A stretch of 64,000 nt of DNA. It comes from Paramecium tetraurelia. Taxonomy: Eukaryota. The DNA lies in the NCBI GenBank assembly GCA_000165425.1, contig CT867985.1:1-64000 (forward strand), read 5' to 3'. This document shows positions 8,715 to 47,225 of this stretch, in pieces; the first letter of the stretch is position 1, and the number at the start of each line of letters is the position of its first letter. Both the position numbers and the translations under genes were made by a program. The notes under the pieces are model-generated. The model was not told where the DNA came from. It worked only from the letters and a program-made list of their open reading frames with translations, and did no database searches.

Positions 8715-9330
8715 TCAGAGGTTTTAATACTTTTTGTTTACAAATTCAAGGAGCTCTTTATAACATGTTTCAAAATTATCATTAACAATGAAATGATAAA
8801 ATTAAAAAGATTTAGCTTTTTCAATTTCAGTTTCTGCGTTCTTGATTCTCTTCTCCACAACATCAGATGTTTCAGTTTTTCTTCCAATTAATCTTTCTCT
8901 AAGAATGCTGATAGATGGTGGTAGTATAAATATGTTTACGCATTAGTTATTCAATTATCTATTTATTTTTTCAGCTCCTTAAACATCTATCTCTATAAGA
9001 GGTATTTTATTTTATTTAATGATATCGTTTATTTGATTTTTAGCAGTGCCATATAGATTTCCATGAACTTCACAAACCTCTAGAAACTCATTATTTTTGA
9101 TATTTTCCTCAAAGACATCTTTGTTTACAAAATGATAATTGACGCCATTCTACTCATTTGGTCTTGGTTTTCTAGTAGTCAGACTCACACTGTAAACAAA
9201 GCTTTGGCTATTTTATAGTAATCTGGTGACTAATGATCCCTTTAATAAAATAATTATGTACTTTGCCAACTCCACTCGGGCCAGAAACTATTAAAGGTTT
9301 AATTGTGGAAAATTTATAAATTGCTTTCAT
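8715..9330 (-). CDS. Guanylate kinase (197 aa), possibly mitochondrial
   Basis: P-loop [14 protein letters not shown] across a 22-nt intron (9240-9261), then [33 protein letters not shown] and [18 protein letters not shown]. Spliced length is 594 nt. Confidence 0.95.
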
Positions 9331-9547
9331 TAATATTTTATAATTAATATTACTATAATTTTGGCAAGCATTTCGAGAATTCTTAAGCCCAATATATTGA
9401 TTTCGTTGATTAATTTTGTATTAGTAATAGATAAAGCTTATAATATCACAAGTCATTGACACTTTTGAATTTCAATTTTTGAAACTATCCTATTTGTTTT
9501 TTTATATTGTAAAATAATATCTGATATTTATCAATATATATACTAAA

Positions 9548-10841
9548 TCAATTCCAATATTCATCTTTATTAAGATGATGATTAATCATTTCATATAGGA
9601 CTTATGGTTAATCAAAAACAGCAGCATGGCCTGCATTGTATATTGTTACCATAGTAAACTTCTCTGTTTTTTTGAAATTGCCGACTGTTCTTCCATTACT
9701 TTTAAAAATAGATTTTTATGCTGATTTCCATTAATAAATTTAATCTGACTTAAAGGTTGATAACCAATTTTGTGTTCCGGCTGGATTTATGCTTGCGTCC
9801 ATCTAACCATTATAGAAAAGGACTGTTCCTTTGTTTAGTAAGTCTTCAATAATTTTGGTCAAATCAAAAGAGAAATCAGGTTCCATCTGCTATTTTACTT
9901 ATTAATTACAAACTTAAGTAATAGTGTTTGTAATTCCAAACTAATCTTTATATTTACTCATAAAATTAATCCACTCATTTGATCTTATTTCTCCTTGTTT
10001 TAGTAAGATATTTGATACATCAGTTTTTGCAAAATTCTCTAATTTATTAAAGTAAGATGTAAATGCTGATCCAGCTAATTTATCCTACTACTTTAATATC
10101 ATCGATTATAATAGATATTCTTCTTTCTTTGTAATTTTCTTAAATTCATCGCTTATATACCCATTCACATATAAGTATGAAGATATTGATGAAGTTTAAT
10201 ATAACATACTTTATAATCCATTTCCAATTATAATTCCTTAATAATTGAACTTGATGTCACTATTAAGTAAACTATTGGAAAATAGAGGAGCAAAGTGACC
10301 TGTGTAACTGAATCCAGTAAGGTAAGTCTATGCTTATTAGAATTCGGGATGAACCTTGAAAAATTCAACCATAAATTCTACAAAATAACCTGAAGCTTGT
10401 AATGTTGAATTAATTTATATATCTCCTTAGCTAAATCCAGTTCCAAAGGGTTGATCAATGAATAAAATTGAAGCAAAATCATTCCAACTATTATCCTTTT
10501 TTTGAATTGTAAAGTCAGCATCAGATTTTTCAATATGGAATGGACCAATCAATTCATAAAATGCACTTTATGATGAACAACCAGGACCTCCTTAAAGCCA
10601 AATCAAGAATATGTTGTCTTTTGTGATTGTTTACTCGTTGAACCCTTTTTAGTAAACTAATTGATAAAACATATTATTCTTTTCTTTTAACAATCCTGTA
10701 GCTGATCCACTTTCAACATCAAAATCAATCGCTAAATACTTGTTATATAATTCTATGAGCTTGTAATTAATTTGGATTACCTTTTAAAGATTTCCTATTG
10801 ATAGCGGCATGTGCAAAATAAATAAGAATGCAAAAAATCAT
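9548..10841 (-). CDS. Serine carboxypeptidase (peptidase S10) with signal peptide
   Basis: FLIWLQGGPGCSS, ELIGPF, FIDQPFGTGFS, nucleophile motif GFSYTGH, YNGQMD and IYNAGHAAVFDQP. Hydrophobic N-terminus MIFCILIYFAHA. Confidence 0.93.
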
Positions 10842-11189
10842 TAAATAATTAATGAAATATTTACTAAAATAATTATATAAATGTTTGAATAACTTCCAAT
10901 TGTAAATTAAATTAATAAGCTATCTATTTATACACATTTGAAATTACATACCTCTATTGATAATAGTAGAATAAGAAATTGATAAAATAAAACCTATTCT
11001 TTGTGAATTTTGTTATTAAATTAATTCTCCACTTATATTTTTTCAATTTTGTAAAGGAAGAGAATATTTATTGATGTCAAATAAAAGTGGTACTGTCCTA
11101 AAGCGAATGTAACAGTGTTTTTACATTTTCAATAGATACGATTATTGATATTTAGGTTTAATTGATAAAAACGATATAAATAAAAATAA

Positions 11190-11487
11190 ATGGCAGATAA
11201 AGGCGGAGCCAAAGGAGGAGCAGGAGAAGAGGGAAAGGAAGGAGAAGATAAAGAGCCAGAGAAAGGATGTTGCGATAAATATGCTGAATGCTTAGTCGTG
11301 ACTGGTAAAGTAAATAATTGATTTCTATATTCAGGCTGTCTACTCTTGTTGCCTGGCTATTTGTACCTGTATAAGAGAATGTTTGGCATTTATTTGGTAC
11401 CCATGCAAAGAAAGATGTTGCGGTTGTCTTGATAATTGTGACAAGCATTACAATTAATGGAAGGATGAAGGATTTACAGATGTATGA
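11190..11487 (+). CDS. Small cysteine-rich protein (90 aa, 13 Cys)
   Basis: MADKGGAKGGAGEEGKEGEDKEPEKGCCDKYAECLVVTGK|AVYSCCLAICTCIRECLAFIWYPCKERCCGCLDNCDKHYNQWKDEGFTDV-TGA. 25-nt intron at 11310-11334. GC-rich compared with its flanks. Confidence 0.85.
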
Positions 11488-11721
11488 AATTGAGTACTGC
11501 AGATTTTGTTTTTATAATTAAATTTTCTCCATAAAGACCATTTTTGTTTTTCAGTTATTTACATAAAATCTAGATACAATTTCGAAAAAATAATGTAATT
11601 CTAAATAAAAGTCTGCAATATATTATAGAGATTTGTAAGTGTAAGATATAAGTATCTAGTTTCTAATGAAAATAAATTACTCAGACCATGGTCTTATATT
11701 TATAATACAAAATAATTAAAA

Positions 11722-14700
11722 TCAGAAAGTATTTTGACTGTCTTCTTGAATTTTAGCACTCTTTCCTTCTAAAAATGCATATTTCCTTAATTCTTTGGAT
11801 ACCCAATAAGGACAATCAGGAATGGCAGCTCCAAGGATATATTTAATAAGTAATAAAATATGTTCTATTGCTGCTAGTACTAAAGTTTGAAATAAGGGAT
11901 CGGTATCCCCAATCAATTTTTCAAATTCAGATTTATTTACGATCCCTATCACTATGCAATTCATGAAGGTAGAACAATAATTCATAATCTCAAAAATGGA
12001 TAGCCAAATTCCAATTGAATCAGCAGCTTAAGCTCTCTTTAGTAATGTAATATCTTACCTCTCGTTTTAGCACATTTTAGTAGTTGTAGATGGAAAATTG
12101 TAGGTTGATGTATTGATTTAACAGAAAGAAAAGTGGAGCAGCAGCGAAGGCAGGAGAAAACATAGTTGTATATCCAAATTGAATGGCTATACTAGTATAC
12201 TCATTATATAATTCCTTTTATGGTTACTTATTATGGCTATCCTCCATTATTTGCATAAATTTAATCTAATCTTGAAGGGGCAACTTGTCATTTACATACT
12301 ACAATTCACAAATTTTGAAATCTTTACAATAATCCTAAAATTTATCAAATTAACCCTCGAGACCCCATTTCAGATATTTATAGAATAAAAAAGGCATGCA
12401 ATTGCTGGTTAAATTGGAGATTAATCCTCTTGTAATAATTATGCTGGCTACTGATAAAGTTAATTGGGTCTGATCTGATTTAAATAATACAGCATAGACG
12501 ACAGAGATGTAGGAGATTAAGAATTCAAATAAAAACACTTTTAAAACATAAGAGTATTGCATTGCTAAATCAAATTTATGATTTTCCCAATTAACCACTG
12601 ATTTGCATAAGCGTTTATATAGGTCGCAAAAGACAGTCATGCCTACTCCATTAAGAGAATTAATTATTATTGGCATATAGATATTGTTTGGATCTTGGTT
12701 TGATTACCAAATGTTGAAGGCAAAGAAGCTCACTACTATAATAGATATCCCTAACAATATTACTGGGAATTCAACTATCAGCCTTCTTTTAAACGTTGTA
12801 AAATAATCATAGATTCCTATTTTATTTGTACATTGATTGATAACATATTCACCAGTATACATAACCCTTTAAGGCTCCTATTATTTGAATTTATGCATAT
12901 CCCAAATATATTTAAACTCAGATTCTCTATTTTTCCATTTCTCCATGAATAATGTTGCCCAAAGTGACATAAATAAAGCATAGGCTGGTAAAATGGAAGC
13001 ACTTAATTATACTGATTAAATTTTACTGAACTTTATCAGCAAACAGCTGATACAATTGAATAGCAGAACCAACTAGAGCTGGAATTATAAGCCAGCCTAC
13101 AATTTAAACGTTAAAAGAGATATACCAGGCAATCACAGGTCCATAATATGCTGCTATGGAATTTAATGGTCTTAATGAAAACTAGTGAGTTTCAAATCTG
13201 ATTGTGTCTCTGATGCAATTGTATTGGAGCTCTTTCCATAACTAATCAACTTTTTATTATTTTGAATTGTCTTCAAGGGGAAAATGAGATATCACTAAAC
13301 CCTCTAAAATAAATTTGTCTAAATCAAATTCTTCATTCAATGTATTAACAATAAGGGATTGTATCTGCAAAGGTTTAGGAAATTCGTAATGATCATAATC
13401 TCGATATTTAAATTTGGCTAGATGCTATGATTAAAAAAGATATTACTTTCTTAGTAAAATGATAGCATTCAATCTCATATTTATCCGCTAATTTATAAAT
13501 AGTATTTGCTGTTAGTTTCAACACGTAATAATGATGTTTCATCTTATTTTCTTATTAATTCCTAAGACAATTATAATTTGGAGTGTTGATTACTATGAAT
13601 TCAAAGTCCATATCATTTTATTAAAGAGATTATCTAATATTCTGTAATTGTAACATAACAATATCTTGATTAACATCTAAGGATCCCTTTGTCTAAAGAA
13701 CGTACATATATCCCATGAAATTAAAACTTTGTTCATTTTTTTTTAGATATTAATTCTCGTAAAATTTGACCATCTTAGTATCGAAGGTAAGTTCAAAAGG
13801 TTTTAAACATCTATGGTTTAAGACATCAACTGAAACCCCATTTTCCACTAAAATCTTCATGCATTCATAATTGTTGATTTCAATTGCTAAATGTAAGGCA
13901 TTCGAAGGATTCAAATCAGTCATCATATTGAAGGCATTATTCTAATAATCAATAACTCAATAATACTTTATTAAATATAACTTTGCTCTGCTGAGTTTTA
14001 GTCAATTCCTCTTCGGTAATATAAGGTTGTTTCTCCTTCAGTTCTTCTAGCTCTTTGTATTTATATTCATTCTCTAATATAAATCTTAGAATATTGTATT
14101 TCCCTTTGTTTGCTGCAATATGTAGACAATTAAATCCTTAATATTAAATTAGAAATGGATTACATCCCTTTTTTAAAAAGTATGTAAAAAATTCTATAGA
14201 CTCTATTCTTGTTGACCAAAATTATAATCTGCACTCAAACAATTACCTCTTATTTTAACTCTTTGTATAATGAAAGATGTAGTAAGGTTCATTATTAAAA
14301 GTTGTACTTTTTCTTTTGAATAATTTCTATCCTGGTTTCTTTAATGAGGGTTTCATCGATCTAAATTATTGAGCATCCTTCATCGACAATCTAAAATCCT
14401 CTTAGGATATTTGCATTTCTTGAGAAAGTTGCCTTCCAAACTAAGAAGGTGCACATGATTATTGGCATTATGATGGTTAATATCGAGATAATTCGGAGCG
14501 TGAATAAATATTATTTGATTTAAAGATACGAGGAATTTCTTCATCTGATTAAACCAGATTTTTTTATTGATTTCTTTCACTTTCCAAATCACTTTTAGAA
14601 TTGAGTATTTTATTTGATTAATCAAAATAATTTTTATGAGGATCAATAAATATTGTATTGGTTGGTTACATTATTTTAACAGTAGGAATTTTTTCTGCTT

Positions 14701-15705
14701 CTGGTTCATTAAGTTCTTATTAGGAATCATCAAATGGAATTTCATTGGGTATATTTTTATTTGGTAACTTTGTCATTCTCTCTTTGATTTACTTAAATTA
14801 TTAACTTAGTCTAGAAGTTAAGGAATCTCTTTTTTGAGACATAGTACATGTTTATCGAACCTTTGACATTAAGGTCATCGTAGTCAAACCTGCATGTAAA
14901 TAATTTTAGGTTCTTTCTTCAGATTCACTGTCAATTTCATTAGCAGGTTCTTTCAATTGCAATCTATCTCTACTATCATTGCCTTGCGACTTTAATGACT
15001 GAGATCTAAGAGTCATAGTCATTTAAGTATTGAGGTTTCGGAGATTTTTAAATTGGTGATTGTAGACTGTTTATGCATATTCCACAACTGTTGCAATAAA
15101 AATGCCTTTGTAGTTCCTCCTAAAATACATGAAATTTATAAAAATACTAATATTCCTAAGGTCTGTTTTCCAAGAATAAATAATCGACAGGATACATGCC
15201 AAATTAGTCGAATTGGTATTGTAAATCGGGGTAATTTGACAAGAGGAATTTAATTAACTCCGTGTTTCCATAATAATATGCCCAATGAAGTGGAGTAGCT
15301 CTTTAATATGGATTATCAAGTCGGACTACAGCCTTATTCTCGATTAACAGTTTGATTAGGCTAAATTAAATCAAGGAGTCTTGTTCTTTCATGAAGCTGC
15401 AAGTAATTAGAATATTGAATTTACCCTTTAATGCTCGCTAATTCTAAAGGAGTGTAATGATGCATATCGGTCTTATTAAGATCTATGTATTAAGAGTAGG
15501 ATTGTAGCCAATTTTCCACTAATTCCAATTATCCGAAATAGGCAGCCCAATGGACTACATTGCGTTTCTAGTTATCAATCATCTTGAAAAAGTGTTAAAG
15601 TCCTTGTTAATTGCCAGCTAGATTTTCACGAAAGTAAACTGCCAAAGTTTATGCGTTACCATCTTTGACCCATTCTAGTAATTGAGTTTGGGTTATCTTA
15701 TACAT
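11722..15705 (-). CDS. Ankyrin-repeat + anoctamin (TMEM16) family membrane protein
   Basis: N-terminal ankyrin repeats: RNVVHWAAYFGQLELV, TPLELASIKG, ATPLHWAYYYGNTELIKFLL, NCLHIAANKGKYNILRFIL, NALHLAIEINNYECMKILVENG. C-terminal anoctamin motifs: PLNSIAAYYGPVIAWY, VNWENHK, LKVFLFEF, EYTSIAIQFGYTTMF, SIGIW, EHILLLIKYILGAAIPDCPYWV. Confidence 0.9.
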
Positions 15706-17800: not shown

Positions 17801-17884
17801 ATGTGGACTGTAATTAAAAAAAAATAAAATAAAAATGTATGAAATCACATTAATTAATGTATTTACTCTCTTATTAATTTTGAC

Positions 17885-19798
17885 TCAATATTCATCTAAT
17901 TCTACTAAATTTGGATGTTCTTTTTTATTGATTCTATTAAACATACATCTATGTTTAAAGATTTATTTTTGATATTGAATATTAAGACTTTGTGATAAGT
18001 AAGCAACAGTAACAACAAAACTTAGGATTATTTGCTGGAGTGTTCTCCTGAATTAGAATTTAAATAGGAAATCAGATTATTTACGAGTTATTTGAGATCC
18101 CTTAAATCTTAGTTTGTATATATTTGTTTATTTTGAGTATAATTGATTAAATCTTTATGTAAAATAACCATAGTATTTATCTCAACTTTGCAATTCACAT
18201 GATTAGGAATAAGTTCCAATTAATTACTCAAAGCCTTTATTAGTTATTGAATTGAAGATTTGCCTTAAAATGGAGAGTGCTGTTGTTGATAGCCAAAGTT
18301 TCCACTTAAACTATTAGTTCTTTTAACTCTTTCAGTCTTTGGATTTCTAAACATGGTAAAATAATCAGAACCTTTGTTGTCATCTAATTAGAATTCTGAG
18401 ACTTTCACTAAATCTAAGTCATAGTTTTATTTATTCGAAGTATTTGTAGAATGTGATTACAAAGCACTTGGAGTTCTGCATGAGTCATTATTACTATTAA
18501 GTTTTTGTTGAACGTTATGGATTTTTTCCAAATAATTGTTTAGCTCTGATCTTTAAGTGGGAAATTTGGAGTTTTAAGAATTGCTTCTTTCTCTCTCTAC
18601 TTTCCCTTGAGTTTGCTTTAGTTTTTCTTTAAGATCCAAATAACTAGTAATCTATTTTTATTTTTCATTGATTGGTGTTTTATTTTCATATCGTTTTGCT
18701 CCATCATTAGTAAGAAAAGCGGTATTACTAAGACTTCTATTATGTTTGTTGATTTATTAACATAATGATTCAGTTCTTTATTTAATTCTAAGCATCTGTA
18801 TGGAGTATTTCGATTAATTGTAATTTTGATTTTCTCTTTGAGTTGAAATTTAAGTATCCTCTTTCACTGTTGAAGTGGGAGACTCCTATTGATTGTCAAT
18901 TGTTTTTAGATTGATGTTAACAGAATTGAATAGATCTTCCCAACTCCATCTTTTCTCCTCATTGATCTGGAGACAGCCTTTGATGAGTTTCTTTGTATTT
19001 TCTGAAACTTATGGGTGCACTGGAAAAGACAAGGGCTAATTGATTAAAATTAATAAAATTACTTTTGAATCCAATTTATTCATTAATTCGACTAGGTTTT
19101 GAGAATGCCAAGGAGTCATGCCATAAAGCATCTCATATAGGATTAGTCCTAGTGACCAAACATCACACTTGGAAGAGTATTTAGTTCGTTTTAAGATTTA
19201 AGGACTCATGTACAATGGAGTGCCAACCAAGGAATTCATGATGGTATCGAGATTGGCATCAATTTATTTGGCAAAGCCGAAATCAGTGATTTTGAATTGG
19301 TTGTCGTGAATGAGAATGTTGGCTGGTTTGATGTCTCTATGGATGATTCCAATTTTAAGTAGAGCTTTGATTCCTAATAACAAATCATTCATGATCTTGA
19401 GAGCTTCATCTTCTGGAATAACTCTAAATGTATGAATACAGTACTTTCGATTCTTGATAAATTCCCTTAGGTCTCCTCCATTGCAATACTCAGTTATGAT
19501 GTATGTATTATTGGCACTTTGTAGTACATCGAGGAGTTTAACAACATGCGAATCATTAATCTTCTTCATAATTTCAATTTCTGAGGCAATTAATTGATTG
19601 GCGTAATCGGTAAGTAGTAACTTTTTGTCAATCACTTTGAGTGCAACAATTTTGTCTATGGATTAGAAATGCAAGTATACTATCAAAGGTGTTTCTTCCT
19701 GCATAAACAGTGCCATAAGCACCTTTGCCCAATTTGGCTCTGAAACTGAACTGATAATTCTAAATTTTTTTATCGGGAGGGTAGCTGAGGTGTTACAT
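17885..19798 (-). CDS. Ser/Thr protein kinase, ULK/Atg1-like, with a long low-complexity C-terminal region
   Basis: LGKGAYGTVY, VALK, EYCNGGDL, IIHRDIKPANIL, ITDFGFAK, SLVGTPLYMSPQIL and KCDVWSLG. Introns include 19656-19680 and 19424-19444. Confidence 0.93.
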
Positions 19799-20006
19799 TT
19801 TATATTTTGAATTTGAAATATTTATTTAATGTTTAGAATTATGTTATAATTTAAAATTTATGGTGAAAATAGTTTGATTGAATTAACTCATAGTAAATGA
19901 CAAGAGTTAATTAATCATTTTCGTCAATTGTCTTGAAATACTTTCGCGAGATTACCAATATTAATGAGATACATAACATTTTTTTATTGATTTAATTATA
20001 TATATA

Positions 20007-21533
20007 ATGGTAAAGTATTTCGATAATATTTGGGAAAACATCCTTGTAGTTGCTTTGGGGGTTGCTCCTCTTCTATAGAATTTGGTTGGTTTGGCCTGGA
20101 AGAGGTAGAATAAAAGTAAGAACTCATGCATTTAAGGATAGACTACTAAGCTGCCAAGTTAAAATTTAAGGAAAAGAGAAGTATTTTCATTCTGAATTTA
20201 TGTTCAATTTACACAAAAATAGCAATCTTGAGTATGTTTACACTTTTGTCAATATTGCAAATAGTCATCAACACTTAATTTCATTCAGAGTATGTAGTGT
20301 GTTGTTAACTAGTTACGTTTTGATTATAATTATAGAATTTTGTTAGATAATTAATTACTTGTTGGCAGGATTGCAAGTATTTGAAGATGCAGATATATAC
20401 GGATAAACAACATTTGTTACTCAATTAAATCTCATAGTATTTTATGGAATATCTATATAGTTGCAATTTTTGTGTTTTTGTGGTTTTGCAATAATCCTCT
20501 TTACTTGGCAGATAAATAACAAAGATAGATTTGTGATCATGCATGAAGACACTAGTTGTTGGCTAATGTTCATCCTCAGAGGAATAGTCCTCATGCTCTT
20601 TTCAGTCTTCGTCTTCTTTATGCCATAGGATAAAAAGTTGCTCCAAACTATAGTCTCTGAGTACAAATACAAAAAATAACTGCTTGGTAATGATGAAGAG
20701 ACATAGATAAGGTAATAGCTATTGACAAATGAATCCACATTTACATTTTGTTAGCCAGACATCGAAAAGCAATCACAAGTAACCGATATTGAAGTGAAAT
20801 CCTTCCAAGACAATAAAGATCTTAATAGTTAACGAAAATACATCATTTATGAGATTACCTTCAAATATCAGAACAAACACAAAATAGTATTTCGATCTTT
20901 CAGTGACTTCCTAACATTCCACAGAGATTTAGCCTTGACATATCCATAGATCCAATTACCCCATTTCCCTTAAATGACAAAATACCTAACTCCATAGGAT
21001 ATTGAAAATCGAAGAGAACAACTAGGCGTATTTCTCTAAAGAATATCGAGTCAATTCAATGGTAACGACATACTCCTAGACTTTTTGAATGCTACTGGAA
21101 AGTGTTTCCAATATAAACCAAAAATACCTTTGCCACAACAATAATAGCAGAGACCCAAGAAGATTGCAACACAATAACAATATACCAAAGCAAAATCAAT
21201 CCAAAGTTTGATCCCAGAAACCATTTGGGAAGGACAGAATGATGAGGATGAGGAGAGCATTGAGGTTGATACAAGAAAAACAAAAAAGGCTTCGACTTAT
21301 GTAAAGATGCATTTTGGAGAGGAAGAACCTCAATATTAGAGATTTAATAGTGCTAACGATCTAGATGAGGATCAAAGAACTTTTGACTTTGAGAAACCTT
21401 CGGATGGTATTATTTGATATTTGAGTTATTTATAGATTAGATTGGGTATGATCAATTTTAGGATGATGATCATGATCACTCTTTTGAGGAGGAAGAAAAG
21501 CATTCGTCACAAAATATGATGATAATGTAATGA
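20007..21533 (+). CDS. Multi-pass transmembrane protein with a PX (phox homology) domain and acidic tail
   Basis: Several hydrophobic segments, then YIIYEITFKYQNKHKIVFRSFSDFLTFHRDLALTYPQIQLPHFP...IENRREQLGVFLQ...LLDFLN, matching the PX consensus RR(Y/F)S(D/E)F..L...LP..P...R...L..FL. 5' splice pattern is provisional. Confidence 0.8.
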
Positions 21534-29552: not shown

Positions 29553-31636
29553 ATGTTCAGGAAGCAGGATTTCAAAAAATTGGAATTGTTAGGCTCAGGT
29601 AAGAAGCATACCAAGATCTATCGAGTGTAGCACATCCAAACAAATAAAGTATATGCTTTAAAGGAGATTGAAAGCAACTAATTTGGAGAAACTGAATGAA
29701 TACAAAGAGGAAGCAGTTTAACTTAGTAAGGTATAGAACTGTGGAAATGTGATTCGATTTTATGGATACTACTTTGCTGAAACTCTTTATAATACATTTC
29801 GGTTAGGAATCATAACGGAGTATTTATGCATATATTAATTTAGGTACATGGATCATAACATGAATTTGGAAAATCTATATAGGAAAAGAAAGAAACCTAA
29901 TTAGTTCTGGAAGGAAAATGAGTTAGTAACTATGTTGTTTAGCATAATATCGACATGCTCTTATTTGCAATAAAAAGGGATTTGCCATAGAGACATAAAA
30001 CCAGCTAACTTATTTATGATTCCTAATGGAGAATTGAAATTAATTGATTTTGGAGAAAGCAAGGATTACTTCTTTGACTTAGATAACGAGGCCAAAAATA
30101 CTTATACGATGGCAACTATTAGAGGCACACCTTAATATTTATCACCTATTTTATGGAAGGCTCATGTCATAGATGGAAATAGTAGATATGTAGAACATAA
30201 CATTTATAAATCAGATGTGTTTTCAACTGGATTGGTTATTCATTAGATGAGTGCAATGCAAGAAGTAACTGGGTTCAATAATACTTAATCAAATGAGGGG
30301 GAACAACTGATACTATAGAGTTTGGCTTAGTTAGAATAAAAGTATAGTCCTGCCTATGTGTCGATAATAAAATTGATGCTAATTTTCGAAGAGGCTCAAA
30401 GACCCTCATACGTTGAGATTGAACAATTGTTCTTAGAACATGAAGAGAAATACCAATCAGGAAAGATCTAAGAGAATGTAGCTATTAATGAATACATTTT
30501 GTTGTACAATTAGCATTACAATACCATGTTGAAACGAGGACCTCCTTATAGAACATCACAGGAGGCTGAAGTGTAATTTAAGAACGTGATCACATAACAT
30601 ATGAAAAATGCTGGTTCATCACCGATGATTGAACAATCTCAAAAGTCAAAGTAACCATTAAGGGAATAGCCATCATCCTAAAAATAGCAACAGATTACTT
30701 AATAATAATAATCATAACCAGTTTAAGTTATTAAGCAACCAGTTGTATCGCAATCTGCTTTTTATAGGGATTCAACCTTGATACTGAATGATTCTTGCTT
30801 ATGGTTTGAGTTTGGTGGTAAGACTATAAGTAAATTTTCAACGTCCAAATAAAAATGGCGTTAGATAGCCAAATTAGATGTGGAATTGGATAGATAGTTT
30901 ACAACTCTTTTTGTTCCTGATAAAAAAGCATTTTATTTAATAGGAGGATTCCAAGAGACTAACTTTAGAGTGTATCAAAATGATAAGTTGGAGTTGATGA
31001 AACACTAAATTCCCATGAATAGATTCTTCTGTTCTTGTCTTTATTATAATCATAAAATCTATTGCATAGGAGGGTATGATGAACAACATAAAATTCAACT
31101 ATCATCGGTGTTGTACTACGATCTTATTTCAGAGAAATGGGTTCAATTAGCTGATTTGAAATAACCAAAGAGTTAGGCTGCCCCTTGTAGAATCAATGAC
31201 AATGAAATAGTGCTGTTTGGAGGGTACAACAAAGAGGAAGGGACACTGGACACAATTGAACGATACTTAATAAATGAGAATAGGTGGGAGAAATGTAATT
31301 TGAAATTACCATTGCCTTTAAGAAGATTTATGGCAGTCAGAATCAAAAAGAATTTGGCCTTATTGATAGGAGGTCTAACGATGTATGCTAAGGAGAGTTA
31401 AAAGGTATTGAAGGTGGATTGGGAGAAGAAGGAAATCATCGAATGTGAACCTTTGGAAAAAGGTATTGGATGTGTATAAATAATGTTTAGGTGGAATTGT
31501 TGAAAGTGAGGTGCTTCTTGATACTGAAGGCAATTTACATATATTTCTTGAAAATGCAAATGGTACTTCGCCATATGCTCACATCAAATACTATTTTGAC
31601 CCGAATGCAACCAAATACGAGACTAAAGCTGATTGA
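29553..31636 (+). CDS. Protein kinase fused to a C-terminal kelch-repeat beta-propeller; one +1 frameshift near 29671-29699 as assembled
   Basis: Kinase: LLGSG, YALKEI, ICHRDIKPANL, LIDFGES, GTPQYLSP, KSDVFSTG. Kelch: FYLIGG, KIYCIGGYD..SVLYYDLISEKW, IVLFGGYN..TIERYLINENRW, ALLIGG. Two introns. Confidence 0.85.
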
Positions 31637-38321: not shown

Positions 38322-41300
38322 ATGGACAGAGCGGGTTAAGGTTAAAACAAGCAACTCCTCCATTATGGATGTTTACTGTATTTGATATTCAAGGACGACA
38401 ATGGACAAGAGTAGAACTATTGTTTATGTCATTAGATATCTAGTTACAGCGGATGGGTACACGAAGAACAAGATCCTTTTGAAAAAGAAGGAGGATGTAT
38501 TGAAGTATTCATCGATTTCCTCGTGTTTATTCAAGATCTACCCCACCTTTTACAACAACGAGTATCAGAAGGCTCTGAAGGTGAAGGAGGAGAAGGGGAA
38601 GATAAAGAAATTTTCAATCATTGAAATGAGAAGTAAAGGGCATTGATAATATTTTAGATGCCTAATTGGAGATACCCAAAAACATAAAGGCCATGGAGGA
38701 TGAAACGACTTTGAATCACGAACAGTATGAAAAGTTTAAAGGTTCTCCAGTTGTCTTTGGTTAAACGATACAATTATTACATATCAACTCAAACAAATAC
38801 TTGTATTACGATTCGAATCACGTTTCAGAAATAGAGAGCAACAATCTGAAACTCAGTTTAATAGATGAACATTCTGATGAGACCTGTTACAGGATCACTC
38901 CTTGCTACACATTCTAATAGGAAGGATCAGGGAACATATACCACGAGGATATAGTTCACATAGTTTCCACAGTGGATTAGACAAAGAAGATTGGAGGTGA
39001 GCCCTATTTGCATGCTTCGAGACCCAAGATCTGTATTAAATTATATCATCAAAATAGTCGACACGAAGTCATCAGCCCAGAAGGAGAAGAGAGAAGTGAA
39101 TATTTCCACAGAAAAAAAGACGCCTTGGAAGGTGAATATATTTGCCGAGTATTTGGATGAGAGAGAAGGGTTCTTGAGCATTTAAGATACCGTATGGATC
39201 AACTATTCAGAACAGGATGTAATTCTATTGATTCTATTTACGATAGCTCAACCTCATTGCCATTAGAGATTAAATCAAGTAATAGGCACAACATCAGAAA
39301 TCGGAATTGCACATCTTTTTTGAGTAATGCACTCAATCTGCCAATTACACCAAATTTGTTGGTAACTCGAATGGTTTGTTTACAATTGAGAGTGAGTCCA
39401 TGTTTCAGGGAGGACTAGTCAAGTGGGATACTCCAATGATATCCTCCTCTTATCGACTCAGACATCTGACGACAAAGAAGTACTTGAAGGTAGTAGAGGA
39501 GAAGAAAGAGACAGAGGACAAGTCTAGATTCCTGTTAACAAGTGTGTCCGATTATTAAAAGGCTTCCTTGTTCCATTTCGAACTGATATTCTCAACATTG
39601 ACTACTTACAATAGAGAGAAGGCCCAGTTGTACTTACAGAAGGATAGTTATTTCAGAGCATCTACGTATGTTGGTTAGGATTAAGTGTGGTTGAGGACTG
39701 AGTCAATATAGAATGAGGAAGAGAATAAGGATATTTCCAAGGAGAAGAAAAAGAGTGTGCCTGCATTCAACAAAGTAAAGAAGGAGGAATATGTGTTCAA
39801 AATAGCCAAAGCCAATTTTAACGAAGTCAGAATGACCAACTTTCTCCTTTCTTGCTTGAAGACAATAAAAGGAGCCTAGCAATACATGGATGTGTCATTT
39901 CTATCGGCAGACATTAAAGATGAGAAGTTTCAGAAATCATATAAGGGTTTTGTGGCTCATATGCAAAGATTGAGTAAATGCTTATCCGAATTATAACTGT
40001 TTTGCCACAACAAGTTAATTGCCTATTTGTACATCGATTAGGAGTTCGGATAGATCAACCACTTCATACAGAATGTGTTGAGGGAATAATAATTTATAGA
40101 ATTACTGGTGAAGATTCTGTGCGTATCCTTTCCTGACGTATCGACATTGGACACTTTGAGATCCATAGAGAAATCAGAATCGATGGACAAGACTAAAAAG
40201 CGAGTGGTTGATGAAAGCAGCAAGAATAGAGACTCATAAATTAAGAAGGAGTATTACAATAGCAAAAAGAAGATTTGCTCCTTAATTTATCAATTGCTCG
40301 ATTGCATTTGCCAATAGAATATCATCAATTAAGAGTAGGCTTCCAGATACATTCCCATATTCGCATAGTAGAGTGTTTACATTGACGATGGCTTGAAGTG
40401 CATAGTGTAAATCATCAGAGATCATGAGGATTTGCTTTTGAAAATACACGAATAGGTGAATGAGGATGATGAAACACATTAGTTGCGTCAATTGGAACAG
40501 GAGATTGTTATGGCTAATCATTCGAATACCTTCTAGTAACAATTGACAATCGAGGACTATCGACGATTGTATGATCAAATCATCAAGAAGATTTTGAATG
40601 AGGATCACTTCTAATTGAGATCGAAATGGGATTTGTTGTAATTCTACACTAATTTGCTGAAAGAGAAAACCACCTCAGCAGAAAAGAAGAGAGACATCAT
40701 ATCCTTTTTGCAGTTCGCTTCTACTCACAGAGCGAAAGGGCTGAATGTAAATTAGGAGGGCATCTACAGATGTTTGATTGATGCTTACGATAGAGATAGA
40801 GTGTTTAAGGATGAGGTGCTAATAAAGTTTGAAAGACAATAGAAGATTATAAAGATATTTGTAAAAGGGGAAGAGAAGAACTTCGTGGAATTCTTCACTA
40901 AGACAGACAAGAAAAAACAGCATTTCCAGGAGGCTGATGGGGATGAGATTGGTAAATCTAAGCAGTTGAACAATTTCTTAAAAAAGCAGACAGTGAAGAC
41001 ACCTTCATAGGAACTGAAACCAAAATTGATACTGTCTTTGGTGACTGAACAGTTGGAATTCTATATCTCTATGTGCAATACTAGAAATAATACTTGGAAG
41101 AGATTCGTTGAGTAGTTTCTCCCCTTTGATGTGTTGATTGATCATCTGAAAATGGGGGATATAGGTTACGATATGAGATCCATTATTTGTAAGTTAATGA
41201 ACAAGGTTTATTTGGATCAGGAGCCCAGAAGAGAGATCATCTTCCCAGAGTTGTGTAAGGTGGTCATTACTGATTAAGATAATGTCCAAGGGATTTTGGA

Positions 41301-44300
41301 AGAGGAGGAAGGAGGATTGAAGATATATCAGGATTACAAAGACGGATTGTATCAGTTCATAAAGGAGTGTGGATTAAATGTCGATAAGATGTCATCCAAT
41401 TGGGACATCAAATTCGGGGAAGCCAAGTAGAGAGAGACTCTTAAGGAGATTTCTATTCAATGTCCAGAAACCTATAATAGATTAACATTGGAGATGATTA
41501 GATCACTTAAATTGCTCATTACATTTGGGCAGTATAGAATCTAGTTGTGCAATACTCCAGAAGAAACTACTTAGAAGAATGAGAACTTTTTCAGCATCAT
41601 CAAATACTTGTTTACCATTTTGGAGTTTGATCCCAAGTATCCAGAATCCAGGAAGATTCTGTAGATAAAGAGGGAGGAAGATAAGTCAAAGGGGGCTAAT
41701 TAGGGCACATAGTAAATATTTGGGAATGCATTGAGTCTCTTGGGGAAGATTGGTAGTCTGATCAATGTGTTTTCGTTGATTGAGGATAAGGACGGAGGGA
41801 AGGATAAAAAGAGGAAACAGAAGAATATATAATTTGAGAGTGGGCCTTTGAATATGAATGAGTCATTTTTGAAATAGGCTGATGTGCTCAAAAAGATATT
41901 GATTAAATTCTTGTAAGAGTCTTCCGAGGCGGATCAACAAATCAAATTAGAAATCTGCGATATTTTGAATCAATATTTGGATTAAAAAATGGATTATTGT
42001 TTGAATTAATTTAAGTAGAAGTTTAAGGACTACGTGACTAAGCACCTTAAAATAATGGCACGATTGGAGGAGGGATCTCTAAATTTGACAGTGGAAGCTG
42101 ATCGTAAGACTATTGAATAGGAATTCCAAAGAGCCATAAAAAATTAAATTAAAGCTTTGATTCCTTCCATTTTGAAAACAGGAACAGATGCTGATAAAAG
42201 AGGGTAGCCAAAGAGTGAGAATTTTAATTTGGGATTCGGTTTGGACTTGGCTCAATTGGCAGGAGGTGTGGAAGTGTTGGACCAATCTAAGGAAATAGAT
42301 GCAATAGATATATGTACAATATTGGGATTTGAAATATTCCCTACATTGATCAACCTATTTTGTATGAGTCAATCTCTGGACATGCAAACTAAGATTCTTA
42401 ACATTCTCACTAGATTCTACAATCAAAGAGAAGAATTTGCTGATCTTGTGTCCAAAATATTGTTATTGTTTGATAGTTAGAATATTAAGATATTTAGTGA
42501 TTTAAAGAAGAAAATGAGACAATTGGCTAAGAATATCGATGAATCTGAAACTTGGATCAAGGATCCCACCTTACCAGACAATGAAGATATCTTGACTCAA
42601 ACTATCAAGTATTTCGAATTCATCAATAATTTGTTGTATAAGGATTCCACTTTGGAAGATGACAATGTAAGTGTAACATAAAGAATTTTGATCGATGAAT
42701 TTAGATAGTCTATTATGAGGAATCTAAAGGTGCATGACATGTGTGTTCAATTAATAACTGATTGCATTGGAGTGACTGAAAGGTAATTCGAGGGAAGAAC
42801 ACGAAAATTAATCTACGAGTTATTTGGCAACATCTTCTTATTGTTAAAGAATTTCACCTTAAACAATTCAACCAATCAATTGTTATTGAGTGAACATCTC
42901 AATAAGTTGTAGATGAAAATGGAGTTGAATTTGGGACAATTGGATTTGATCAATGAAATCTTCAGAGATAATAAGAGAATATGCATTGAGAAACCAGGCA
43001 CAGTCATAGATAATATTAGAAAATTAATCAAGACAAATGGGAGACAATCGAGATTCTTAGAATTCTTCATTTTGATTCAAAAGGTAAAGAAGGAATTCAT
43101 ACTCTCCAATCAGAAGGGAGTTCTTAACATGCTTCTAGATCCAGCCTATAAGAGTAGTATATTTTGGTTGAAGGATAGACAAGCCCAAGTGAGTGATAAG
43201 AATCAAGCTCAAGCATCAATTAAACATGAGTTTGATTTTACTCCAGCTAAGAATGATAATCCCAATTACAGGGATGAACCATATTCGTATCATTGCACCT
43301 TGATTGAAGTTCTATACACTTGTGCAATAGGGAAGGAAGGAATGCTGTAGAATGAATCACGCTTAAGAACCATTATCTCATTGAAATATGCACTTGAAAT
43401 TTTATGTGCTCCTGACGGAATGACTGATGATGACATTCATGTTGTGAATCCCAGATATGACAAGTATTAGGTCTCTTAATTAAAAATTCCATTGTTAAAG
43501 TACATCTATTACACTTACTTGGAGAGTGAGAAGATTGCTGAAGAAATCTTCAAATGTATTAATGACATTCAGGATTACGTCAATGCAGAGAAGATTAGAA
43601 TAGAGAAGTTCACAAAATTGCCAGTGAGTGAACAATTCTAAGAGTACTTTTTTACTTACTACTTTATGTGCATAAATGGATTCCTGAGACTGTATCAGAA
43701 GGAACAAAACGATTAGAATCTTGTCCATTAAAATTAGGCTTAGGTCCATTAGGAGATTGAGAATTTATTTGCTTCAGTTAAAAAATTGAGAGATCTGGTG
43801 GAGAATCATGAGGAACTTAATAATTTGAAGTTGAGTCAATAGCAAATGGATTTAAGATTGTACTTCTTGTGTGACAACATTGTTGAGGAGGAAATACTAC
43901 AGAAATAGAAGAAGGAGGAAGAGGAGAAGCAATAAGCTTTAAAGTTAGAAGAACAAATCTAAGAGGAGAAGAGAAAGAATAAGAAGAAGTAAAAGACATT
44001 CAATCTTGGATTAAATTTAATTAATCTTGATTTCAACAAGCAGAAAAATAAACCAGCTGATTTTAGAACTGATGATGCTTGGAAATAATTGTGGTAGATC
44101 TTTATGCAAACTTTCTTAAATTCTAAGGAGTTGTTGGAAGAAATCAAAAAAGAACAAAAAATATTCTCTGAAGCCTTGGAAAAAGTGGAAAGCATTTATT
44201 CCAAAGATCCATTGATCTAGGATCACATCAATAAAACGGAAATCTTCAAGAAGTTGATCACTTTCTTAAGCAAAGGACACAACCAACCTGGATGTGAATA

Positions 44301-47225
44301 GACTATAAAGTAAGTGTTAAGAGCATTAAGCAATTATATCATTATCTCAGAAGATACTGAAACTACTGAACAAGATGAGGAGAAACAAGCAGAAATGAGA
44401 CAGCAGGTGAGAGAGGATAGGTAGAATTTTCTTAACAATAATAATGCCATGGCCACCATCCTAGTCATTTTGTCAGATTACAAAGACATTAATCGATATA
44501 ACCTATTGTACAATAATCTGTTGAGTTTTGGCATTGAAATGATGGAAGGAGGCAACAGAGAAGTCTAAAAGTCTGTTTACAATTTCTTTGTTAATTTTAC
44601 TTCTTCAGAAGTGTTCTTTCTAAGATTGCATGAGAGATTCGAAGATCAAAAGGCAGAATTGAAAAAGGAGGATGAAGATGAGGATGATATCAAATACAAT
44701 TTCTAGGATGAACCTGAGGAAACACAAAACACTTTGAGATTCTTACAATTATTGGTTGAAGGTCATTACACAGAATTGCAAAATTACATGAGATTCCAAT
44801 AGATGAATTATCACACTTATGACTTATTCACTGATGTCGTTGAGTTATTGGGAGAATACCTGAATGTTAAGAAAACCAAGTATTTCTATTGTATGATCCA
44901 ATGCTTTGACACCATTACTGAATATGTCCAAGGTCCTTGCTTTGAAAATCAGCAGGCTTTGTTTTAAGCTAACTTTTTGGATATGGCAACCAATTTGCTA
45001 GGATTTGATGAAAGAATAGAAGAGATTAATTTGAGGCAAAAAAAGAAAACCTTGGATGAATCTCAATTGGATCCCAACACTGAGAGAAAGAAAAATGAGG
45101 TATTCCCCAGATGGATGTATGCCAGATTGAAATATAAGTGTTCCATTACTTTGTTGTCTTTATTGGAAGGGAGAAAATCAAATGATGTTATTATTAGATT
45201 GGCAAAATCATTTAATCTAGAGATGTTGAAGGTCAATATTATAGACATCTATGACATGTATAAGAGTCTATATTAAGATCATTACACTGCTGAGATTTTC
45301 TCGCATTTCTCAATGGAGCCTGAAACAGAAAGCAAAGAAACCGAAGAAGGCAAGAAGAGTGCTGACATGGCTAGTTTTATTATTGAAACTGGATTCAACT
45401 TGTTCGTTCTTTACTCGACCTTCTTGGAGGTCAAGGATCCCACAGATGGAGGAGGTCAAAAAGAAGGCGAGAAAGGAGATGATATTATGGAGCAATTCAA
45501 GGCTAACATTGTTGGAGAGGTTGTGTTTTTAGCTATCAATATAGTGAGAGGAGTAAAAGATTTCTTTTTGAGTTTTGCTGAAAAATTGAATTAGGCTGTG
45601 AGAAGAGACACCAACGAAATAGATTATGATTAATTGAAGAAATAAATTTAAGATAGTAGAAGCAAATTATTTAAGGAAAGCATCAAGTTCTTCTCTAATA
45701 ATTCTGCTCACATTGAAGTGTTGAGAGAAGATAAGATGCTTGAAAAAACTTACTTTTATTTACTTCCCTATTGCAAGAGTCTTGATAAGCCAACAAAGAC
45801 TTAATTTAATTAAGAGGCTAAAAGAATCTCCGTTAAAGCAAAAGTAACTTCGTTACTATAAGAATCACCTGATTTAATAAAGAAGATGAAGTTAACTTAT
45901 CAAATTTAATCTTATTTAAATAAGATAAAGGTTTTAGCTTTGATTGTTTCTAAGATTCAATTGTATAGAGACATTACCTTTATTTTGGCATTGACTATCA
46001 ATGTTATGATTTTGTTTGTGTTCCATAAAGAAGTTAAGCAATGTGATCCAACATCGGATCCTGCTGAATATCAAGCATGTTTGGATGATTATGTGTATGA
46101 AGAAGATCTGTAGGATCAAGATTTGTAATTGCAGGGTGTCATACAGACCTTAGGAATCATTGTTATTGTGCTATCTATGTTGATTGTGCTCTTCTTTTTA
46201 GCATAGACAGCTCCATTGATTATAAAGAAGGCTTGGATGGGATGGGAAAACGATAACTTCAACATTATTATGTATATAAGAAGACTGCTAATGACAGTTG
46301 TCTACCTGGTAACTGACTTCTATGTGCTTTATTATCTGAGTTATGGATTTACAGCATTTTTGGGGACTCTCTACCACCCATTCTTTTTTGCATTTCATCT
46401 ATTTGATGTTTTGGTGAGGTACCCTGTGTTGTTGAATGTTGTAAAAGCAGTTTGGGAACCTAGAAAATCAATTCTGTTCACACTGTTTCTATTTATAGTG
46501 CTTATGTATGTGTTCTCATTGGTGGCTTATTACTGGCTGTATGAAAGTTACCCTGCAAACTTTTGTTATAGCACATTCTAATGTTTATTGACAGCAGTTG
46601 ATAGATCATTTAAGTCTGATGGTGGATTGGGAGGGTTCTTGACTCCTTCGACAGATGTTAAACCTAACGATGATGGGTATTTTTTCCTTAGATTCTTTTT
46701 CGATAACATTTACTTCATTTTGTTGATGATCATTATGATCAATATTGTGTCTGGTATTATTATTGATACCTTTGGTACTTTGAGAGAGGAATTGAATGTT
46801 TATTAATTGGATCTGTAGAATATTTGTTTCATCTGCGGATTCGATAAGGAAACCATTGAAAAATCTAGTAAAAATCAACTGGGATTCACCTATCATATTA
46901 AATAAGAACATTATATGTGGAATTATTTGTTTTATATTGCTTACCTGAAAGACAAGGATTCTACTGAGTACAGTGGTATAGAGAGTTATGTAATGGATAA
47001 GATCAAGAATGAAGACACGTCATGGTTCCCGACTTTTAAGTAATAATATTTTTGATTTGTAGGGCTTTATGCATGAATGATGACCAAGAAGGGCAAGAAT
47101 AAGGTCAAATGATGAATGAATTGAAACAAATCCAGGATGACTAAGAGAGATTACAAGAATTATTGGATAACATCAATCAACAGTTGGAAAAGATTGAGGA
47201 AGATTAGAAATAAGGAAATCAATGA
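38322..47225 (+). CDS. IP3 receptor / ryanodine receptor-type Ca2+ release channel (Paramecium CRC family), ~2925 aa
   Basis: MIR-like YRLRHLTTKKYL. RIH-associated LRFLQLLVEGHYTELQNYMRFQ and CFDTITEYVQGPCFENQQAL. HIEV, TM region with HPFFFAFHLFD, pore FKSDGGLGG, IIIDTFGTLRE, zinc motif CFICG..HIKQEHYMWNYL. Introns 38411-38435, 38633-38657, 39033-39057, 39219-39246 and 47040-47062 give 8778 coding nt. Confidence 0.96.

Follow-up and report, generated by a model that had tools for sequence, protein, structure and literature searches.

A Paramecium tetraurelia gene that joins an ankyrin stack to an anoctamin with four of five main Ca2+-site acids replaced and the third Ca2+ site retained

Within the 64,000-nucleotide stretch of Paramecium tetraurelia DNA analyzed here (the window), a gene on the minus strand (11722-15705) joins an ankyrin stack in frame to a full anoctamin (TMEM16) domain whose main Ca2+ site retains one of its five acids, and the TM2 glutamate and TM10 aspartate of the third Ca2+ site are both present in the predicted protein. 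An ankyrin-TMEM16 fusion with a lost main Ca2+ site is apparently so far undescribed. We found no literature on ankyrin-anoctamin fusions in Paramecium, in oomycetes, or in general in a search by title and abstract start that most subscription papers fall outside of, and the word "ankyrin" does not occur in the main text, as available, of a survey of the superfamily (PMC5868767) or of a Stentor preprint.

The gene model consists of seven exons encoding 1277 aa under genetic code 6, from a start ATG at 15705 to a TGA stop ending at 11722. Removal of six GT..AG introns of 22-28 nt yields a single reading frame with zero inner stops, the predicted protein is identical letter for letter to a database protein (P0001) whose source is Paramecium tetraurelia, and a paralog (L046) has six introns in the same places, all with GT..AG ends. 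Introns 1 (15397-15424, 28 nt) and 2 (15120-15147, 28 nt) are placed by frame, GT..AG ends, and the paralog, and intron 6 (12037-12058, 22 nt) by frame and the paralog; removal of these three was not seen in RNA. Intron 3 (13942-13966, 25 nt) is spliced out in a contig of RNA run X8, and intron 5 (13002-13026, 25 nt) is spliced out in a contig of run X5 and retained in a contig of run X8. Intron 4 (13425-13446, 22 nt), supported by frame and the paralog, is seen in an RNA contig only as a 29-nt form with a frame-shifting acceptor. Sense coverage along the gene is low, and the joints were read from contigs, the raw reads being too shallow to show any joint. No gene-spanning RNA piece was found among the RNA contigs examined, and none of the indexed sequence sets containing the gene is recorded as RNA. 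RNA support for a single transcript is partial, extending to introns 3 and 5 and not to introns 1, 2, and 6 or to a gene-spanning piece. That the ankyrin part and the full anoctamin form one gene, as the original prediction held, is upheld by the single frame, the paralog introns, and the database protein. Two separate genes wrongly joined were ruled out by the open frame, the paralog introns, and the conservation of the protein in 13 proteins across the joint at intron 2, which connects the first part of the ankyrin stack to the rest. We found 13 full-length proteins with the same ankyrin and anoctamin make-up, and in further relatives the fusion is a single open frame on contigs that barely exceed the gene.

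From its N-terminus, the protein comprises a first part of the ankyrin stack (15062-15684; approximately residues 8-196, about five repeats), an S/Q/K-rich insertion (14285-15052; approximately residues 200-455), a second part of the stack (13750-14251; approximately residues 467-625, about four repeats), the TMEM16 cytosolic alpha/beta domain (13158-13728; approximately residues 633-815), and the anoctamin membrane domain (11782-13157; residues 816-1258), all on the minus strand. Pfam searches of P0001 returned the anoctamin family PF04547 over residues 816-1258 at 300.6 bits (cut-off 28, profile positions 1-459 of 460), which is the sole family named in the membrane part, and Ank_2 at 77.9 bits (cut-off 27.3); 19 residues lie beyond the Pfam domain at the chain end. 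The structural model of the whole ordered part, which covers residues 80 onward with the first two ankyrin repeats being read from the sequence, has a pTM of 0.76 despite 232 residues with pLDDT below 50, and the ankyrin stack in it is continuous; the model of a relative (P0100) reached a pTM of 0.82. The ankyrin fusion, originally described as two clusters separated by a long low-complexity linker, therefore stands as a fusion but not as separate clusters, since in the model the two clusters, about nine repeats in total, behave as a single stack from which a disordered insertion loops out. This insertion (pLDDT below 50) is fast evolving, with 15-18% identity to 8 proteins of a second subgroup versus 64-65% in the membrane domain, which is the most conserved part of the protein (80-82% and 64-65% identity).

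The predicted model has the TMEM16 fold of a cytosolic alpha/beta domain and a ten-helix membrane domain; TMEM16 proteins are homodimers formed through TM10. The nearest protein of known structure by both sequence and fold is TMEM16K or anoctamin-10, a human ER scramblase (PDB entries 5oc9 and 6r65). TMEM16K is the best match by sequence among solved structures (E 8.5e-17 and 5.9e-9), it occupied ranks 1-7 when Foldseek was run with the predicted model, and the model, which matches it from TMEM16K residue 14 on, aligned to 6r65 with a Z of 38.8 and an rmsd of 3.4 over 585 of 623 residues, with nhTMEM16 and TMEM16F falling within 1 Z of TMEM16K in the same comparison. Fold scores descend from TMEM16K (Z 36.9) through Ist2 (Z 25.8, rmsd 4.5, 488 aligned) and OSCA1.2 (22.3) to TMC-1 (20.4), and no closer kinship to OSCA/TMEM63 or TMC than to TMEM16 was found by profile or by fold. 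TMEM16K differs, however, in that it lacks ankyrin repeats and has the complete set of five main-site acids.

The TM6, TM7, and TM8 motifs from which the loss of the main Ca2+ site was originally predicted map to 12427-12392, 12202-12173, and 12121-12092 on the minus strand. HMMER alignment to TMEM16K (5oc9), with residue numbers counted off the printed alignment, pairs S1058 with E448, E1126 with D497, S1129 with E500, N1158 with E529, and S1162 with D533, and an independent MAFFT alignment agrees, its five columns being acidic in 53, 52, 52, 53, and 53 of 53 canonical rows. S1058 (12404-12406) thus stands where the TM6 glutamate was, TM7 (12191-12202) holds E1126 as the sole retained acid and S1129 in place of a lost one, and both TM8 acids are lost at N1158 and S1162 (12092-12106). 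The site therefore keeps one acid of five, the other four being Ser or Asn, and no basic residue occupies any of the five positions. A misaligned Ca2+ site was ruled out by the two aligners and by the absence of any D or E in TM6 (residues 1040-1066) and TM8 (1146-1170), because of which a register shift is unable to restore the site. An alignment placing acids at the main site, the outcome set beforehand as a refutation, came from neither HMMER nor MAFFT, and the claim that only the equivalent of E702 is kept holds. Across 13 Paramecium proteins that are 51-74% identical, S1058, N1158, and S1162 do not vary, and the loss of the main site is therefore not free decay; E1126 and N1055 are likewise invariant there, and one of these proteins (P0003) has a second main-site acid.

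The ankyrin-anoctamin fusion is an old subfamily that includes oomycetes. It was found in 17 of the 40 anoctamin genes examined in the P. tetraurelia genome, falling in three lineages, and in 46 of 53 matches to an oomycete query together with several further proteins; a third homolog search, with candidates restricted to proteins of 1265-3610 aa, gave 2 matches. The possibility of a Paramecium-only oddity was ruled out by these relatives elsewhere, oomycetes among them. No Tetrahymena, Stentor, or other ciliate genus was matched by name among 30 proteins looked up, a sample that cannot show absence. None of 73 scorable ankyrin-bearing proteins has more than three main-site acids, and of the 36 non-redundant clade rows that could be scored, 26 carry a net charge of 0 or -1 over the five positions, whereas 94 of 125 rows outside the clade carry -5. 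The neutralizing residues are Ser, Asn, Thr, or hydrophobic in ciliate-like rows and Arg or Lys in oomycetes, and the E1126 column is acidic in 7 of 38 clade rows. Erosion of the main site is not tied to the ankyrin fusion because it is also common in anoctamins without ankyrins, all five acids being scored in only 4 of 23 such genes in the P. tetraurelia genome. The presence of the fusion in oomycetes had been overlooked in the original prediction.

In the groove (12512-12649, minus strand), alignments to TMEM16F and its mutants place G977 at the position of F518, E1018 at Q559, and S1022 at Y563. We take Q559 and F518 to be the positions of TMEM16A K588 and L547, and the marks of TMEM16A/B channels, a basic TM5 pore residue and a bulky hydrophobic TM4 gate residue, are absent, with E1018 and G977 in their places. 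The polar TM4-TM6 groove residues N973, S974, N976, E1018, and R1050 show no variation among the 13 Paramecium proteins. Changing the gate residues F518 and Y563 of TMEM16F to Ala is reported to raise scrambling (PMC6478717). By column counts outside the clade, however, Ala/Gly is commonest at the F518 position and Ser at the Y563 position; small residues there are the family norm and therefore no mark of an open gate, and an open inner gate was given up as special evidence. A likeness to the TMEM16A Q649A mutant was also given up, Ile/Val being usual at that column.

We tentatively favor, at a little short of an even chance, a scramblase whose Ca2+ switch has been built out and which is positioned or tuned via an ankyrin partner. 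The protein would be a TMEM16K-like lipid scramblase, with an ion leak probable, lacking the TM6-TM8 switch. This reading is favored by the closeness to the scramblase TMEM16K and by the near-neutral charge that lineages of the clade reach through differing residues. The acidic pocket of TMEM16A, when empty, is described as an electrostatic gate that is released by Ca2+ or by mutations taking charge away (PMC6195346). With four acids replaced, the pocket would carry a charge of -1 instead of -5, as a normal pocket does once two Ca2+ are bound, and a pocket held at its bound-state charge would make the electrostatic part of activation permanent. The groove would be of the scramblase rather than the chloride-channel type, and activity would be basal and unswitched by Ca2+ spikes. 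The ankyrin stack, in rigid connection with the cytosolic domain, may offer a surface for protein binding that locates or tunes the protein via a partner, on the pattern of Ist2, in which scrambling is linked with a partner that transfers lipids.

Yeast Ist2 is already known as a TMEM16 that lacks the main site and is independent of Ca2+, a precedent absent from the original prediction; in it, Lys is reported to replace Ca2+ and scrambling proceeds without Ca2+ (PMC12618243). Ist2, a constitutive scramblase and ER-plasma-membrane tether (PDB entry 9hhe), likewise combines a degenerate main site with a large added cytosolic part. Its addition is a long disordered C-terminal tether with a basic end, whereas the P. 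tetraurelia protein has a folded N-terminal ankyrin stack and no such tail, and its basic pocket residues resemble the Arg/Lys of the oomycete members, whereas the P. tetraurelia protein has no Lys/Arg stand-in. The lack of such a tail and of a basic stand-in counts against the favored reading, as does the third Ca2+ site kept in every ankyrin-bearing gene of the P. tetraurelia genome. The likeness to Ist2 is probably convergence. Activation by Ca2+ defines the TMEM16 family, Ist2 being the exception described so far. The ankyrin-TMEM16 proteins form another group that departs from this definition, larger than Ist2 and apparently of greater age, in which the main site has been neutralized several times via different residues with the ankyrin stack and the third site kept. 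They are natural proteins for asking whether neutralizing the charge suffices to open the groove, whether gating can run on the third site by itself, and whether a TMEM16 can be gated via an ankyrin tether; Paramecium, with 17 such genes, is open to RNAi and electrophysiology.

The third-site ligands of the P. tetraurelia protein are E879 in TM2 (12941-12943, minus strand) and D1247 in TM10 (11815-11817, minus strand), which align with TMEM16K E259 and D615, reported to be direct ligands of the third Ca2+ (PMC7786149), and K882 is kept as well. Retention of this site had been overlooked in the original prediction. Because of it, the Ca2+-independence proposed there is not established: in the TMEM16A mutant Q645A/E701K/D734R, whose main sites are disabled at the positions of S1129 and S1162 and whose third site is intact, the third site alone is reported to give Ca2+-dependent currents with an EC50 of ~320-360 nM (PMC7786149). 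Ca2+ regulation might thus persist through the third (TM2/TM10) site alone, with the ankyrin stack merely positioning the protein, which we consider unlikely. All 17 ankyrin-bearing genes of the P. tetraurelia genome retain both ligands, versus 2 of 20 scorable ankyrin-less ones, the fourth position of the site is Asp in 8 of the 13 Paramecium group proteins, a sister lineage with zero main-site acids scored has four charged third-site residues, and a relative (P0021) carries an EF-hand pair within its membrane domain. However, among 34 scorable clade rows both ligands are absent in 6 and one in 2, and the residues, which 83 of 121 rows outside the clade also have, may serve a structural role. 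The TMEM16A effect, moreover, is described as potentiation of a current already opened by a further mutation, and that mutant is an engineered chloride channel, whereas the P. tetraurelia protein has Glu at the TMEM16F Q559 position. If the protein is instead a scramblase with its main switch built out, the third site would provide a modulating Ca2+ input at most.

The original prediction also proposed gating by ankyrin-tethered force, as in NOMPC. NOMPC and other ankyrin-bearing TRP channels do run an N-terminal ankyrin array into a membrane domain, a generic ankyrin likeness only, but the NOMPC spring has 29 repeats on an unrelated TRP pore, whereas the P. tetraurelia protein has far fewer, with an inner insertion, on a TMEM16 pore, and its fold is TMEM16K-like rather than OSCA- or TMC-like; the analogy is weak. 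Were the protein a channel or scramblase gated by force, its ankyrin stack would connect the cytosolic domain with the cortex and pull on TM6, supplanting the Ca2+ trigger, and an ancient subfamily of ciliates, oomycetes, and further protists would have exchanged Ca2+ for mechanical gating through a built-in tether, with this protein as a candidate Paramecium touch sensor; we regard both the mechanism and its extension to the subfamily as quite improbable. The continuity of the modeled stack and the fold held in common with OSCA and TMC speak for force. The ankyrin UNC-44 of C. elegans is a different and much larger one. A study of that worm nevertheless keeps the idea alive, in that touch currents of anoctamin-1 are reported to need CIB and to be absent in unc-44 ankyrin mutants (PMC11830769), so that an anoctamin there also depends on an ankyrin, and the fusion could be the worm touch complex in one chain. 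The ANOH-1/CIB/ankyrin complex differs in being made of separate proteins, with a giant ankyrin and an animal ANO1-type channel, and its expression in HEK cells, even when CIB and UNC-44 were included, reportedly produced no touch current (PMC11830769); neither a plasma-membrane location nor a cytoskeletal partner is indicated by the present analysis.

Loss of the main site can also mean a closed rather than an open protein, because TMEM16A E654Q, which removes the TM6 acid, is reported to be inactive by itself (PMC6195346) and most TMEM16F gate mutants, all save two Lys mutants, are silent once the Ca2+ site is broken (PMC6478717). The protein could then be a transport-dead scaffold or membrane tether, its groove shut without Ca2+ and its membrane part anchoring the ankyrin stack, and earlier results cited in the Ist2 paper describe the membrane part of Ist2 as largely dispensable (PMC12618243). 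We find this distinctly doubtful, since the strong conservation of the membrane domain and its invariant polar groove residues go beyond the needs of an anchor. Least probable by far is that Ca2+ activates this anoctamin in the ordinary way, through a main site of low affinity built from E1126 and polar side chains, or else that two genes have been wrongly joined: the invariance of E1126 and N1055 and the second acid of P0003 speak for the former and the unseen removal of intron 2 for the latter, but a single carboxylate stands where five hold two ions, E1126 is itself lost in most of the clade, and the conserved introns, the 13 full-length proteins, and the single open frames in relatives all indicate one gene.

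The ankyrin-anoctamin gene lies on the minus strand (15705 to 11722) in seven exons, with six GT..AG introns of 22-28 nt, and its 1277 codons yield a product identical to P0001, a database protein filed under Paramecium tetraurelia. The original prediction of an in-frame fusion is borne out by this single frame, by a paralog (L046) with all six introns at matching places, and by 13 full-length Paramecium proteins (five species names) that align over the entire length at 51-74% identity. That both parts share one transcript is supported in part by the 4 of 24 sequencing runs examined, two of them poly(A) read sets and two contig runs whose RNA nature was guessed. Sense-strand depth in the two poly(A) sets was low, mostly <4, and the reads of one (X23) cover the whole gene on the sense strand minus one bin. 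In contigs from runs of guessed RNA status, intron 3 is missing from a piece running 14496-13684, which covers the insertion, the second ankyrin part and the beginning of the TMEM16 domain; a piece running 13385-12499 likewise lacks intron 5. Neither a gene-spanning piece nor removal of introns 1, 2 or 6 was seen in these four runs, and the sole form lacking intron 4 uses an acceptor 7 nt downstream, causing a frameshift, in a contig that also retains intron 5.

Pfam detects two runs of ankyrin repeats and, at residues 816-1258, a full-length anoctamin domain. The AlphaFold model of residues 80-1277, from a 114-row alignment, is confident apart from residues ~222-450 (mean pLDDT 78.2, pTM 0.76). 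The two clusters and the linker described earlier are present, but ankyrin proteins with an unbroken array can be aligned through both clusters, which are therefore a single stack in the model, with the linker looped out as an insertion. Gankyrin aligns at 222 of 229 residues over model residues 1-554 (Z 15.1, rmsd 4.8); a model of the short-insert relative P0100 has the same architecture (pTM 0.82), and EHMT1 ankyrins align to its residues 1-375 at 260 of 268 (Z 18.7, rmsd 4.7). Seven repeats are modelled and two more were read from the sequence ahead of residue 80. The insertion region, measured between two anchor columns, spans 62-312 residues among 12 relatives, the second anchor being a Trp-containing motif common to ciliate, oomycete and some further members. 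The remainder of the model is nearest TMEM16K (Z 36.9), followed by TMEM16F (36.3), afTMEM16 (33.1), TMEM16A (28.8), Ist2 (25.8), OSCA1.2 (22.3) and TMC-1 (20.4).

Aligned to TMEM16K, the five main-site ligand positions read S1058, E1126, S1129, N1158 and S1162, so that E1126 alone remains acidic, as had been proposed. A separate MAFFT alignment, in which 52-53 of the 53 canonical rows have an acid in each of these columns, agrees, and TM6 and TM8 hold no acidic residue at all, so that realignment could bring none to the site. Across the 13 Paramecium proteins four of the five positions never vary, and 1129 is Ser, Asn or once Asp. The further claim of Ca2+ independence does not follow. The TMEM16K counterparts of E879 and D1247 are E259 and D615, which PMC7786149 gives as direct ligands of a third Ca2+; in that study a TMEM16A triple mutant whose main sites no longer work responds to Ca2+ via this site (EC50 ~320-360 nM), and main-site loss is therefore no proof of independence. 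Among own-genome loci, the third site is intact in 17/17 ankyrin genes vs 2/20 without ankyrins. In another ankyrin-anoctamin, P0021, which has two main-site acids only, an EF-hand pair (residues 975-1048) inserted between TM6 and TM7 is a possible added Ca2+ sensor.

The genome has 62 anoctamin matches, from which 43 distinct loci were read, 3 weak ones dropped and 40 scored. Ankyrins lie upstream in 17, with a 1.5 kb flank inspected for most loci; these 17 form three lineages (7, 6 and 4 genes), the smallest of them identified by weaker profile matches. The six-gene lineage (L031, L032, L034-L037) scored no main-site acids, some positions falling at intron joints; its third site reads E, K, E, D, and gating by that site could be examined most cleanly in this lineage. 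An excluded locus, L042 (G000:C191), has ankyrin profile matches preceding a weak anoctamin match (E 1.4e-6); it is either a fourth lineage or a channel of another type. Elsewhere, 9 of 45 proteins, picked mainly by length from the best 150 of 2253 representative matches, combine ankyrins and anoctamin: Saprolegnia parasitica SPRG_19704 and eight on contigs of 3.3-5.2 kb, barely exceeding the gene. A search with the Saprolegnia protein gave 53 matches, of which 46 carry ankyrin Pfam domains, the named ones coming from Saprolegnia, Achlya, Aphanomyces, Pythium, Globisporangium, Lagenidium, Phytophthora, Nothophytophthora and Albugo. In two oomycete members (P0074, P0221) the C-terminal tail is long and includes a Cys/His-rich stretch; there is a weak FYVE_2 match below cut-off (E 0.02). 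P0015, an entry of 2374 aa in which anoctamin stretches occur five times, is possibly tandem genes fused by the gene caller.

Among 73 ankyrin-bearing proteins scorable at all five positions, a set including many oomycete near-copies, a single acid is left in 21, two in 42 and three in 10, and no protein has more; all five occur in 97 of the 131 others. In oomycetes the first TM7 position is Lys, and TM6 carries Arg outside Saprolegniales. Summed over the five positions, net charge comes to 0 or -1 in 26/36 rows of the tree group described below and to -5 in 94/125 others (related rows, for which we claim no p-value); by arithmetic, a normal pocket with its two Ca2+ (PMC12618243) comes to -1. 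Own-genome anoctamins without ankyrins are also eroded, with five acids scored in 4/23 (TM6 poorly aligned in several) and each TM7 acid kept in 22/23. An expanded Paramecium group without ankyrins (L011, L013-L016, L019, L020, L023, L025, L029) keeps the TM7 acids, has Gln for the first TM8 acid and lacks an intact third site.

In a quick tree of the membrane domain minus the five site columns (167 of 239 rows kept after a 70% identity filter), all 28 ankyrin rows fall inside one 38-row group (SH-aLRT 99). Within the group, the ten rows in which no ankyrins were detected measure 419-825 aa; the five that were read start within the TMEM16 domain and look cut. Support is weaker in a careful tree built from 65 selected rows: 70/2 for the 27 group rows by themselves, and 94/97 once P0110, long-branched and ankyrin-less, is included. 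A single origin is likely on these trees, though long-branch attraction may play a part. Because five acids persist in two cut group rows, P0028 and P0159, the main site was probably present in the ancestor and lost separately by the lineages.

The protein is a TMEM16 family member outside the canonical Ca2+-activated kind. Databases carry domain labels for such proteins; literature searches by title and abstract opening, most subscription journals being outside their scope, found no description of the subfamily or its neutralised site, nor did term searches of the main texts of PMC5868767 and the Stentor preprint 10.64898/2026.07.23.740246. Nearest in working mode would be Ist2, reported to lack the main site and scramble without Ca2+, a Lys substituting for the ion (PMC12618243), although the protein is not Ist2-type. 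In TMEM16A, the empty acidic pocket is described as an electrostatic gate, although E654Q alone is inactive (PMC6195346); in TMEM16F, scrambling reportedly increases when F518 and Y563 are replaced by small residues, but a defective Ca2+ site silenced every mutant except two Lys mutants (PMC6478717). Here G977 and S1022 stand at F518/Y563, where small residues are usual across the family, and E1018 at Q559, a pattern that fits a scramblase-type groove, not a TMEM16A-type chloride pore. We tentatively favour a scramblase whose basal activity would be free of a Ca2+ switch and which an ankyrin partner would place or tune. Gating through the third site, consistent with the retained E879/D1247 and the TMEM16A triple mutant, seems rather unlikely. 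Doubtful, and slightly more so, is force gating; its one outside support is that worm anoctamin-1 touch currents require CIB and ankyrin, although they could not be reconstituted in HEK cells (PMC11830769). A transport-dead scaffold is doubtful to the same degree, and a main site of the usual kind but low affinity, or two genes falsely joined, is highly improbable.

Over the last exon, a 28-nt GT..AG stretch on the plus strand (11850-11877) is absent from an X8 contig that retains intron 6, and is probably the mark of a spliced antisense transcript. A small plus-strand gene with a cysteine-rich part (~11180-11500) adjoins the 3' end; its read depth is ~10x that of the anoctamin gene, and the piece tested has no Pfam match. 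Ordinary neighbours recognised by Pfam (8715-10810, 17845-21417, 29653-31503, 48254-49600) are of the kinds guanylate kinase, serine carboxypeptidase, protein kinase, PX-domain protein, kinase with Kelch repeats and ATP-dependent DNA ligase. The plus strand at 39400-47055 holds a 2551-aa frame for an IP3/ryanodine-receptor-type Ca2+ release channel, with Pfam MIR, RIH, RIH_assoc and Ion_trans.
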